From NCBI RefSeq assembly GCF_054482595.1, contig NZ_CM137008.1: 64,000 nt of DNA. One strand, 5' to 3'. Made by a program: the position numbers. Position 1 is the first letter of the stretch, and each line of letters opens with the position of its first letter. Of the stretch, positions 1 through 3,000 are shown piece by piece.

Positions 1-3000
1 GCGCTTTGTCGGTATTGAGCGTGGCAGGCTTTTCCCAGTGCTTCAGGCCTCGCAGGGCCTTGCCCAGGAACCGCTTCGCTGCCTTGGCGCTGCGGGTCGG
101 CGACAGGTAGAAATCGATCGTGTCGCCCCGCTTGTCGACTGCCCGGTACAGGTAGGTCCACTTGCCCCGCACCTTGACGTAGGTTTCATCCAGGCGCCAG
201 CTCGGATCAAAGCCACGCCGCCAGAACCAGCGCAGCCGCTTCTCCATCTCCGGGGCGTAGCACTGGACCCGGCACTGTTGCAAATAGTCGGTGGTGATAA
301 ACTTATCATCCCCTTTTGCTGATGGAGCTGCACATGAACCCATTCAAAGGCCGGCATTTTCAGCGTGACATCATTCTGTGGGCCGTACGCTGGTACTGCA
401 AATACGGCATCAGTTACCGTGAGCTGCAGGAGATGCTGGCTGAACGCGGAGTGAATGTCGATCACTCCACGATTTACCGCTGGGTTCAGCGTTATGCGCC
501 TGAAATGGAAAAACGGCTGCGCTGGTACTGGCGTAACCCTTCCGATCTTTGCCCGTGGCACATGGATGAAACCTACGTGAAGGTCAATGGCCGCTGGGCG
601 TATCTGTACCGGGCCGTCGACAGCCGGGGCCGCACTGTCGATTTTTATCTCTCCTCCCGTCGTAACAGCAAAGCTGCATACCGGTTTCTGGGTAAAATCC
701 TCAACAACGTGAAGAAGTGGCAGATCCCGCGATTCATCAACACGGATAAAGCGCCCGCCTATGGTCGCGCGCTTGCTCTGCTCAAACGCGAAGGCCGGTG
801 CCCGTCTGACGTTGAACACCGACAGATTAAGTACCGGAACAACGTGATTGAATGCGATCATGGCAAACTGAAACGGATAATCGGCGCCACGCTGGGATTT
901 AAATCCATGAAGACGGCTTACGCCACCATCAAAGGTATTGAGGTGATGCGTGCACTACGCAAAGGCCAGGCCTCAGCATTTTATTATGGTGATCCCCTGG
1001 GCGAAATGCGCCTGGTAAGCAGAGTTTTTGAAATGTAAGGCCTTTGAATAAGACAAAAGGCTGCCTCATCGCTAACTTTGCAACAGTGCCGAAGGAATTA
1101 CTCGCAGGACATCATCATCCCAATGACGCTCGTGCACCCGGACTATCTGACTGAGATACTCGACGGGGTAAGGCGGATCGACGATCAGCTGCTGCACATC
1201 TTTCTGACGCTCAACGAGGACCTATTGCGTCACCGGATCGCGAACCAGACCATGCATCCTGACCCGAATCGAAATGCGGAGATTCGAGAGTGGCGATTAG
1301 CGAATGTCGCCCGATGCTTGGCCGCAAGGGAACGGCTTCCATGCACAACCCGTGTTCTCGATAGTGGTGCACACACCAGCGATGAACTCGCAGCGATGGT
1401 GCTCGACGGAATCGATGGGCGCACCTGATCGCCTTCGACGCCTGCGCAAAGCGTAGCGCGAGGGTGGCGGGCTCACGACCAAACGCCCAGAGGTCGATCA
1501 TCGCAGGGATGTTTGGCTTTGTGGTGCGGACGACGGGACTCGAACCCGTACTCTCACAGAGAAGCAGATTTTCGTACCACCTCGACTTTCGCCGCCGTCT
1601 GATGACGTTCGTGGTCTGGACTGTCCCTTCGCCATTGCCCGAAGGCTTTAGGCGCCGCCCGTCCAGTCTCTACACCTTCCCCCGAAGGGGCTTGGCTCGG
1701 GATTGGCTTAGGGTATTGCCCGTTAGCGTTCCCCGACTTTGAGCGGTTCTACTCCGCGGATTTCCCCGCGGGCACTCCAATTTTAAAGTCTGCTGCGTCT
1801 ACCGATTTCGCCACGTCCGCCTTTTTTCGCCGTTCCTAGCGCTCGTGCGATGCACCTATGTTGCACCTAGCGCCGAATCGTTCTTCGTCATCCTGAAAAA
1901 CCACGTCTCCTAAAGCCTTGCATAGCTTATCTTTTCTCCACCACGAACTTTTTTGTGGGATGGTAGAAAAAAAGACTTTTTAAGTCCGCTGGCTTGCCAG
2001 GCCTTGTTAGCTTGTACGGTCATGGTTATCGGGTAAAGAATATTGACGGCATCGCTGGTGTCGGTGGCTGAAAAGCCGGCTCCCATCAGGGCAATAGCCA
2101 TTTCAGATGCAGGCGTACAGGGCAATGGTCAACAGCTACAGCCTGTCTGACGATTCCGGCGTCATGGCTGCGGCGGCTATCACGCATTTTTTGTTCGGTC
2201 AGGCGGTGTTTTCGTACCTCAATGGTTGGAGCGTGTTGATCGGACCTGGTACAGGTTTGGACAGCACGGGCTGCAAATACGCAAGGGATTTAATGGGCCT
2301 GGTGGCGTTCACGGCTTTTATCGTGACGTTTCTGTTCAGGGGCTACTCATAATCTCGTGGCTCGGCGGTTCCCGGCACACCATGACAGTAAGGAAGGACC
2401 CTGTGTCTCAACTCTCCCAGCTTCGAAGCCCCGCCGCCGTGCAGGCTGCCATCGATGAGTTCGTGCAACTGGGCCGCACGAAATTCCTGGCGCGCCACGG
2501 CTACGGCAAGTCCCGCGACTTCCTGGTACGTGATCCGAAGACCGGCACCGATTGCGATTCCAAGGCCATCGCCGGTGTGGCCTTCGGCAAGCAATTTCCC
2601 GAGCAGGGCCCGCTCACTGCTGACAGCTTCTCCGGTGGCGAGACGACCGTCGTTCCGGCGCTGACGCGGCTCGGGTTTCGCATCATTCGCATCGGCGAAG
2701 ACTGGTCCGAAGAAGAGGTCCTGGCCACGGTCGAAGACTATTTCGACATGCTGCGTGCCGAGGCGGCTGGGGAGCCGTACCACAAGTCCGAGCACAACCA
2801 GGCACTGCGCCAACTGCTGAACGGTCGCAGCAAGTCTTCAGTCGAGCTCAAGCACCAGAACATTAGCGCCGTACTCGATGCCCTGGGCCTGCCCTATATC
2901 AACGGCTACAAGCCACGCGGCAACAGCCAACTGCTGCTGCGTAAATCCGTACACGCCTACGTTCTGGAACATCAGCAGACGGTCGGCGCTCTTGTCGATG

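Follow-up and report, generated by a model that had tools for sequence, protein, structure and literature searches.

The 64,000-nucleotide (nt) stretch of DNA analysed here (the window; NCBI RefSeq assembly GCF_054482595.1, contig NZ_CM137008.1) carries, at positions 1522–1820 of its minus strand, a tRNA-Leu(UAA) gene with an intron, 299 nt in total. We found it very probable that this is an intact split gene with a 213-nt intron of the 'Leu.3Ug' class, that it is foreign to Escherichia coli, and that it travels as a passenger in the IS26-aac(3)-IId-tmrB…ISCfr1 resistance module. Window coordinates are used throughout, and the labels L001–L202 denote the comparison loci and contigs that were retrieved. 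The gene is made up as follows:

1786–1820, minus strand: exon 1 of tRNA-Leu(UAA), 35 nt, with the acceptor 5' strand, the D arm, the anticodon stem 5' strand, C32, U33 and U34
1573–1785, minus strand: group I intron, 213 nt, IC3-type, without an open reading frame (ORF), with helices P1–P9 and a P3/P7 pseudoknot, as indicated by Rfam, a custom model and covariation
1522–1572, minus strand: exon 2 of tRNA-Leu(UAA), 51 nt, with A35, A36, the anticodon stem 3' strand, the variable arm, the T arm, the acceptor 3' strand, the A73 discriminator and an encoded CCA at 1522–1524

Read along the minus strand from 1820 to 1522, exon 1 runs GCGGACG…GCAGACUU, the intron UAAAAUUGGAGUGCC…GGUGGUACG and exon 2 AAAAUCUGC…CGUCCGCACCA. 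ARAGORN, run on the joined exons (35 + 51 = 86 nt), reported a class II tRNA-Leu(UAA) whose acceptor stem has 7 bp and whose variable arm is long; the T arm is standard, the discriminator is A and the CCA is encoded. The intron lies between the first and second anticodon bases (U34/A35), follows an exon that ends in …GACUU, and has G as its own last base. The sequence of exon 1 is identical in Sphingomonas fennica (L031) and in metagenome relatives, and the acceptor, D, anticodon, variable and T stems of the tRNA all covary among relatives. On the unspliced DNA, the Rfam tRNA model RF00005 gave just 17.5 bits, as expected. ARAGORN in its default mode found no tRNA anywhere in the 64-kb window. 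With the intron option it recovered the outer boundaries 1522–1820, misplaced the splice site and labelled the gene 'tRNA-Stop(tta)'; this call was discarded for its wrong splice site, its outer ends being right.

The helices of the intron were read from the RF00028 alignment and from the sequence itself, and they were compared in an alignment of 29 sequences, namely the window and 28 genome loci that match the 299 nt end to end. The proposed structure, which includes the tRNA stems, has the following landmarks in the intron:

1774–1780, minus strand: internal guide sequence UUGGAGU, whose GAG pairs with exon CUU, with a U34•G wobble at the splice site, and whose UG pairs with the first two intron bases (P1)
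1761–1764, minus strand: L2 GAAA tetraloop capping the 7-bp P2, GAAA being invariant in the 29 sequences
1659–1676, minus strand: J6/7, the P7 5' strand and the start of P3', GGUGUAGAGACUGGACGG, a catalytic-core signature that is near-invariant in all relatives
1616–1621, minus strand: P7 3' strand GUCCAG, which pairs with CUGGAC at 1661–1666 to form the guanosine-binding helix
1587–1590, minus strand: L9 GAAA tetraloop on the 4-bp P9b, in which three of four pairs covary
1573, minus strand: terminal intron guanosine (omega G) preceding the 3' splice site, G in 29/29 sequences and followed by an invariant AAAAUC

P1 is formed by exon CUU and intron UA paired to UGGAG, with the U•G wobble at the splice site. 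Its pairs in the alignment are C-G (29/29), U-A (27/29) and U•G (29/29), and the two inner pairs differ among sequences yet remain paired and covary (AU 15, GU 5, UG 5, CG 4). Compensatory change was found at all seven pairs of P2. P3 (CCGCUC/GGGCGG) is followed by P4, P5 and P6/P6a, and beyond P7 come P8/P8a, P9/P9a and finally P9b with the second GAAA loop. Changes on both sides of a pair were seen in P3, P4, P5, P6a, P8, P8a, P9, P9a and P9b. P7 was conserved at five of its six pairs, the third being G-C in the window and its closest relatives and A/C in others. Overall, covariation was detected in every helix but P7 and the 2-bp P6, with compensatory changes in 16 of 18 helices.

In the 29-sequence alignment, 97.5% of the cells assigned to pairs were paired under the proposed structure, compared with 33–43% in slid controls, and 43 of 81 pairs had changed on both sides, compared with 13–19 in the controls. 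None of 500 shuffles reached the observed values. Since the proposed structure was taken from the window sequence, the proportion of paired cells is favoured; compensatory changes among the other 28 sequences do not depend on that choice. A covariance model (R1) was also built from 28 natural bacterial introns, with the window left out and with RNAalifold's own consensus structure. Because this model gave a single match in the 64 kb, at 1568–1790 on the minus strand (221.9 bits, E 3.2e-63, model positions 1–234 of 234), a chance resemblance is excluded.

These results bear on a first-pass annotation of the DNA, which had been made by reading the sequence. Its proposal that two minus-strand exons 213 nt apart join into a class II tRNA with anticodon UAA was confirmed by ARAGORN on the joined exons, and the insertion point that it gave, between anticodon positions 34 and 35, recurs with identical boundaries in the 28 relatives. 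The wobble pairing of the exon U with the internal guide (U•G with GGAGU) and the terminal G at 1573 both held in 29/29 sequences, and the IC3-like core was borne out by the core motif, by covariation and by the homologue-based covariance model. A check against RF00028 had also been suggested, and it came out in part. In a permissive Rfam search of 1400–1950, RF00028 (Intron_gpI) aligned to 1795–1603 over its full length (model positions 1–253) with 36.8 bits and an E of 7.9e-8 on 551 nt, but this lies under the gathering score of 50, so that the check would look negative at default settings. At gathering thresholds, a search of the whole window reported only the OmrA/B small RNAs (sRNAs) and nothing at the split gene. 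We ascribe the silence of default ARAGORN and of thresholded Rfam at this site to the limits of the tools and do not read it as a sign of absence. The RF00028 seed contains no bacterial sequences (Williams, bioRxiv 10.1101/2020.01.27.920355).

The split gene is embedded in a resistance region with the following neighbours:

271–1090: IS26, with 100% identity to the IS26 copy of L001
1090–1428, plus strand: 3' remnant of tmrB (AAA-family ATPase), truncated at 1090 by IS26; tmrB and the tRNA gene are convergent
2403–3539, plus strand: DUF3883 gene (ScoMcrA_N + NOV_C), Stutzerimonas/Pseudomonas-like, followed by ISCfr1
~3574–5188: ISCfr1, with its transposase gene at 3654–5024, mapped from L001
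5845–6705: blaTEM-1, followed by E. coli chromosome (yihN)

The positions of IS26, the tmrB remnant, ISCfr1 and blaTEM-1 agree with the IS26-associated resistance context that had been described at first reading. The window is collinear with the IS26-aac(3)-IId-tmrB-…-ISCfr1-blaTEM-1 region of pCTX-M3 and of many IncF, IncL/M and IncC plasmids. Positions 1400–1950 are 100% identical to pCTX-M3 (NC_004464) and to at least 1,300 plasmids, and 1090–7008 are 99.98% identical to the chromosome of E. coli AR_0013 (NZ_CP032204). In the full module, as in pCTX-M3 and AR_0013, aac(3)-IId lies ahead of tmrB. From the copy in this window IS26 has deleted aac(3)-IId, together with the 5' part of tmrB, which is cut at 1090; the module's aminoglycoside-resistance gene has thus been lost here. 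Unlike the reference module, the unit in the window is chromosomal and adjoins yihN. The 93 nt between tmrB and the tRNA gene (1429–1521) matched no source. Window positions 1–270 match DNA adjoining IS6100 in strain AR_0013. OmrA/OmrB sRNA genes are located at 36326–36407 and 36523–36610 (86 and 97 bits), indicating that the rest of the window is enterobacterial chromosome.

The 551-nt stretch 1400–1950 is widespread. It was found with at least 99% identity in 1,317 of 72,556 PLSDB plasmids, whose hosts include Escherichia, Klebsiella, Salmonella, Acinetobacter, Vibrio, Aeromonas and others, and 661 of 5,426 complete E. coli genomes contain it, in 614 places on plasmids and in 89 on chromosomes. 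Wherever annotation was shown, it sits in the IS26-aac(3)-IId-tmrB…ISCfr1 module. At least 80% of the 551-nt query is covered by 1,239 of ~1,370 plasmid matches. In some plasmids the module is broken within or beside the split gene, with coverage ending at query positions 502, 383, 175 or 119, and the existence of such plasmids means that the gene is dispensable. Plasmid matches with 90–95% identity were rejected as relatives of the tRNA, as they cover only the tmrB end.

To find natural relatives, an exact-pattern scan for the core AAGGTGTAGAGACTNGACGG was performed across 100,044 species genomes and gave at least 120 loci. Among the matches listed, 28 loci align with the gene over its full 299 nt, their exon/intron boundaries being the same. 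They belong mostly to Alphaproteobacteria (Phenylobacterium, Roseomonas, Sphingomonas, Bradyrhizobium, Rhizobium, Caulobacter, Roseobacter and others), with a few in Betaproteobacteria and one in a Terriglobia metagenome-assembled genome (MAG), and none of the matches listed was above 83% identity. A metagenome scan with a 26-nt guide-P2 stretch recovered 54 contigs, and the closest copies had 11–18 differences over the 299 nt of tRNA and intron (94–96% identity). Nearly all of these differences fall at unpaired positions, and each affected pair is still paired, as one would expect if the lineage were functional. Compared with 28 to 40 natural copies, the copy in the window has all conserved positions and helices undamaged. 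Homology to natural relatives always starts exactly at the CCA (1522), and in five contigs it extends upstream of the gene into a further element:

1821–1987, minus strand: conserved non-coding spacer, ~167 nt, which lies upstream of the split gene and accompanies it in natural genomes

The spacer contains a repeated TAGGTGCA motif (1851–1870) and, at its far end, a hairpin with a T-run, GGACTTAAAAAGTCTTTTTTT (1967–1987). Positions 1522–1987 align at 84–90% to five contigs (L143, L162, L187, L150 and L166), of which L143 is assigned to Paracoccus kondratievae on the basis of a 100% identical MetG. In the two annotated records that were inspected (the RefSeq chromosome and the PLSDB table for pCTX-M3, a table that lists no RNA genes at all), the split gene has no RNA label and only 'hypothetical protein' ORFs are given. 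Those in RefSeq are WP_000951934.1 at 1910–2101 (minus strand) and WP_000248278.1 at 2125–2352 (plus strand). The former is probably spurious, since its ORF overlaps the conserved non-coding spacer and the hairpin/T-run.

The neighbours of the split gene have relatives of their own. The aac(3)-IId and tmrB genes show 86% nucleotide identity to Ensifer/Sinorhizobium-like contigs, with homology ending at the tmrB stop codon. The DUF3883 gene (83.5% nucleotide, 88% amino acid identity) and ISCfr1 (94.7% nucleotide identity) match Stutzerimonas kunmingensis, with homology from the DUF3883 start codon. No tRNA-Leu was adjacent to aac(3) and tmrB at the TmrB-relative loci (Ensifer-like, Paracoccus), the tRNA was likewise absent from the DUF3883-relative loci in Stutzerimonas, and a tblastn search of AAC(3), TmrB, DUF3883 and the two small ORFs against 180 tRNA-intron loci revealed no linkage. 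Because the DUF3883 gene and ISCfr1 are Stutzerimonas-like and the tRNA gene and aac(3)-tmrB are alphaproteobacterial, the interval from IS26 to ISCfr1 looks like a mosaic of at least three ancestries, with short stretches of unmatched origin between them (1429–1521, ~1990–2384). Alternatively, there may have been one unsequenced donor that had itself acquired all the pieces.

Several loci illustrate these neighbours further. Overlapping aac(3)-like and tmrB-like genes occur in Ensifer-like chromosomal contexts (L003–L006, 7127–8564), and in Paracoccus and other Alphaproteobacteria (L191–L197) aac(3)-tmrB pairs with 68% nucleotide identity stand beside transposases, Tn7-like genes or restriction-modification genes. 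Within Alphaproteobacteria the two genes seem to be mobile as a pair. Window positions 2404–5188 correspond to 6002–8768 of L131 (Stutzerimonas kunmingensis), both having the DUF3883 gene and then an ISCfr1-like element of the IS1182 family, with a gap between gene and element of 34 nt in the window against 16 nt in L131. The Stutzerimonas DUF3883 gene is preceded by a gene for a 1,729-amino-acid (aa) DEAD/UvrD helicase, which the module lacks.

Judging from these comparisons, the split gene is not native to E. coli and has its ancestry in Alphaproteobacteria, the donor being resolved to class only; the donor Alphaproteobacteria are those of soil or water. The first-pass annotation had regarded the fragment as foreign to Enterobacterales, in accord with nearest natural relatives that are alphaproteobacterial chromosomal loci (94–96% over tRNA and intron). 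It had further suggested that the gene might identify the source organism of the tmrB-linked module. This stands as far as Alphaproteobacteria are concerned, to which aac(3)-IId/tmrB also point, and does not extend to a donor species, the interval being mosaic-like.

In natural hosts, the split gene appears to have taken the place of a resident one. In seven metagenome contigs (L143, L162, L187, L150, L166, L144 and L142), the 5' half of a tRNA-Leu gene stands as an orphan, always ~195 nt upstream of the split gene; the orphan ends in …CTT, and AAAA and the conserved spacer come next. The orphans vary in sequence between contigs, and the intact split gene is nearly identical in all seven. The syntenic site in Paracoccus yeei, which follows the arginase gene, is occupied by an ordinary tRNA-Leu(UAA) gene without an intron (L200 12720–12805; L201 2997–3082), the 5' half of which is identical to the orphan of P. 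kondratievae (L199 15150–15801). In P. kondratievae, a weak remnant of the resident T arm and 3' flank is also found ~118 nt past the foreign gene. The match between the unbroken P. yeei gene and the orphan indicates that the resident gene was broken at the position of the intron and that a foreign, intron-bearing copy took over its function. The window keeps the short-spacer form, including the hairpin and T-run at 1967–1987, and at the position of the orphans it has:

1982–2011, minus strand: candidate for a decayed 5' half left by a displaced resident tRNA-Leu gene, with GGACTT at its end

On the strength of a weak resemblance, this segment may be a decayed orphan half. Other loci have a long-spacer layout, with 1.4–1.5 kb between the orphan 5' half and the split gene:

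L054 876–2592: Bradyrhizobiaceae MAG
L086 2627–4436: Pelagibacterium luteolum
L102 1327–3120, minus strand: Marinicaulis flavus
L112 5625–7424, minus strand: Proteobacteria MAG

The long spacer encodes a conserved tyrosine integrase of ~400 aa (phrog_1, E 4e-33; PF00589), and TTACACA-type repeats flank the integrase spacer, including upstream of the integrase. In all four loci exon 2 forms its pairs with exon 1 of the same gene rather than with the orphan, so that the intact split gene is wholly element-borne; a chimera of host and element was rejected as an explanation of the intact gene on this ground. L112 and L162 come from related hosts and have an identical orphan with different inserts. 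Neither orphan 3' halves nor integrases were found within 7–9 kb downstream of the short-spacer cassettes, and at the integrase-bearing loci the far end or orphan 3' half was not found within 6.5–7 kb. A scan of viral_contigs with the integrase alignment yielded one locus, on an IMG/VR provirus contig (L202 9850–11161), with a 61%-identical integrase ~80 nt downstream of a tRNA-Lys(UUU) 3' fragment (anticodon stem to CCA). This is the conventional attachment-site layout, and the integrase family therefore also has conventional tRNA-site members. In a P. yeei-like strain (L201 3871–9866), an island of ~7 kb (tyrosine integrase, DUF3987, Toprim) separates the intron-less tRNA-Leu from the chromosomal gene that follows, so the 3' end of tRNA-Leu is also a conventional island insertion site.

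We tentatively raise the possibility, which we consider doubtful, that the long-spacer loci represent undescribed alphaproteobacterial integrative elements that break tRNA-Leu(UAA) at the anticodon loop (…CTT/AAAA…) and bring a complete intron-bearing replacement gene whose intron splits the attachment core. The replacement gene would then be immune to the integrase through its split DNA target, and the RNA would be restored by splicing. The cargo would lie beyond the 3' end of the tRNA, where aac(3)-IId-tmrB sits in the module, so the alphaproteobacterial part of the module could be the edge of such an island. The natural relatives suggest that tRNA introns may persist by riding on, and perhaps protecting, the replacement tRNA genes of integrative elements.

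If the split gene is transcribed, its precursor should self-splice to tRNA-Leu(UAA) in two steps initiated by guanosine, a prediction supported by its intact core, guide, tetraloops and terminal G. Following established group I chemistry, the precursor would fold into P1–P9 with the P3/P7 pseudoknot, and the GAAA tetraloops L2 and L9 would brace the core. A free guanosine would attack the bond after exon U34 (between 1786 and 1785), the U being held by the GGAGU wobble. The terminal G (1573) would next occupy the G site, and the freed 5' exon would attack the bond between 1573 and 1572, releasing the intron and leaving the 86-nt tRNA with its encoded CCA. As to origin, the split tRNA gene and the ~167-nt upstream spacer very probably came into the module from Alphaproteobacteria as one block, which in those bacteria is a chromosomal cassette that has taken the place of the resident intron-less tRNA-Leu(UAA) at the anticodon loop. 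Transcription, splicing and aminoacylation in enteric hosts, as well as the absence of a role in resistance, are what we infer.

Some observations weigh against an intact alphaproteobacterial gene carried as a passenger. No sigma-70 consensus promoter was found within 600 nt upstream of the gene (scan of 1400–2420), which puts transcription in E. coli in question. The RF00028 score (36.8 bits) missed the gathering score, and the thermodynamic folding (z = -1.5) was unremarkable, a value that is uninformative alone. The near-total identity of the plasmid copies is a sign of recent spread and is silent on selection in enteric bacteria. The exact donor or donor species was not found in the genome scan, among the matches listed, or in the metagenome scan. 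The most extreme alternative is that the segment is neither tRNA nor intron, being a fragment of tmRNA, another structured RNA or a product of chance, and that the 'hypothetical protein' ORFs are real. Default tRNA finders and Rfam at gathering thresholds are silent here, and the RefSeq labels nearby are hypothetical proteins only, as this alternative would have it. We nevertheless give it almost no chance. The tmRNA model matched just 17 nt of the T arm at 12.2 bits against a gathering score of 47, so the tmRNA or other structured RNA named at first reading as the competing identity fails; the other Rfam families in the permissive search of 1400–1950 had E values above 1, and the annotated ORF at 1910–2101 overlaps the conserved non-coding spacer. 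The compensatory changes in most helices and the R1 match of 221.9 bits refute it.

Given that the segment is a split tRNA gene, there is a real, if lesser, chance that it is a dead relic in Enterobacterales, lying inert between tmrB and ISCfr1 and either untranscribed or unspliced and uncharged. The lack of a sigma-70-type promoter in 1400–2420 agrees with this, as do the module variants broken within or beside the gene (at the four coverage ends given above) and E. coli's own tRNA-Leu(UAA) gene, leuZ. However, the conserved positions and helices are undamaged relative to the natural copies, the natural upstream spacer has been retained, and read-through transcription is possible. Related bacterial tRNA introns splice in E. 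coli, which also counts against an inert gene. At the other extreme, the gene might be useful in the module, as an extra tRNA-Leu(UAA) for UUA-rich plasmid genes, as a structured barrier to transcription downstream of tmrB or as an attachment site for integrative elements. We find this improbable. Most copies do keep the gene, judging from the coverage of the plasmid matches, and the 3' end of the resident tRNA-Leu of Paracoccus takes island insertions (L201), but linkage within a recently spread IS26 unit accounts for the retention. Broken variants exist, the unit in this window has lost aac(3)-IId and kept the tRNA, and, being GC-rich, the flanking genes probably have no need of UUA decoding. 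The split gene is probably a passenger and a role in resistance is unlikely, because no sigma-70 consensus promoter lies upstream of it, E. coli has its own gene, and module variants are broken at it.

The finding can be used to correct annotation and to trace provenance. The tRNA gene and its probable ribozyme have no label in the two records inspected, and the module that carries them occurs in about one in eight complete E. coli genomes and in more than 1,000 plasmids and is among the commonest antibiotic-resistance modules of E. coli and Klebsiella. The tRNA-intron block and aac(3)-IId-tmrB point to Alphaproteobacteria (Paracoccus-like and Ensifer-like, respectively), and DUF3883-ISCfr1 points to Stutzerimonas. 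This leaves a smaller field in which to look for the source of a clinically important aminoglycoside-resistance gene, and it presents the module as composite. The spread of the module also amounts to a natural experiment, in which many clinical enteric strains have received a group I intron.

Classical tRNA-integrating islands and prophages, which Williams is said to have described in NAR in 2002, reportedly restore the tRNA with a copied 3' part and leave an orphan 3' fragment. The long-spacer loci resemble them in having the anticodon loop of tRNA-Leu(UAA) as the breakpoint and an adjoining tyrosine integrase (L054, L086, L102 and L112). Unlike in the classical islands, what is orphaned is the 5' half of the host gene, and the element brings a whole intron-bearing replacement gene.

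Among IC3 introns, the pre-tRNA-Ile(CAU) intron of Azoarcus sp. BH72 is the structural model; it was reportedly the subject of work by Reinhold-Hurek and Shub in 1992 and by Adams et al. in 2004. We take it to be similar to the intron in the window in being small, GC-rich and without an ORF, with GAAA at L2 and L9, a likeness that serves as a lead and not as a test. The same holds for the likeness of the cores, which both appear to read …GAGCCAAGC…GAAGGUGUAGAGACU(A/G)GACGG…AUAGUCCAG…. The Azoarcus intron differs in its host tRNA (Ile2 against Leu), in its position in the anticodon loop and in the peripheral helices P5, P6, P8 and P9. An Azoarcus-like group I intron also splits a tRNA(CAU) gene in a MAG labelled Klebsiella pneumoniae (L104, minus strand, ~3437; the label is taken as given), where GCTTACACACCGCTTACACACC repeats ahead of the gene resemble the repeats near the integrases of L054, L086, L102 and L112. 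In Candidatus Enterovibrio escacola (L014, minus strand, ~11400), a related intron splits a tRNA-Arg(UCU) gene.

The nearest known system is the 'Leu.3Ug' class, one of four classical bacterial tRNA intron classes, all IC3, in a survey of 80,413 genomes; its tRNA-Leu(UAA) introns occur in cyanobacteria, plastids and Proteobacteria (Williams, bioRxiv 10.1101/2020.01.27.920355). The text of that survey mentions neither plasmids nor resistance regions, and searches among 8 million papers gave none that links tmrB with a tRNA-Leu gene or a group I intron. The window shares with the class the host gene, the insertion point (CUU/…g/AAAA), the U(-1)•G wobble, the terminal G and the IC3 core, and row Ncf2 ('Leu.3Ug') of the Williams seed alignment has, as in the window, a CUUGAG-UGC guide, a GAAA loop on P2 and a GCAGAACUGCUCAAAUUCGGGGAA core. 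As part of the explanation as a whole, we are thus highly confident in classifying the insert, from its sequence features, as an ORF-less group I intron of the bacterial tRNA type, subgroup IC3, class 'Leu.3Ug'. The kind is already known, and what is new is the unexpected and very widespread enterobacterial resistance setting: the copy in the window lies in an IS26/ISCfr1 resistance module of Enterobacterales and not in its native chromosome.

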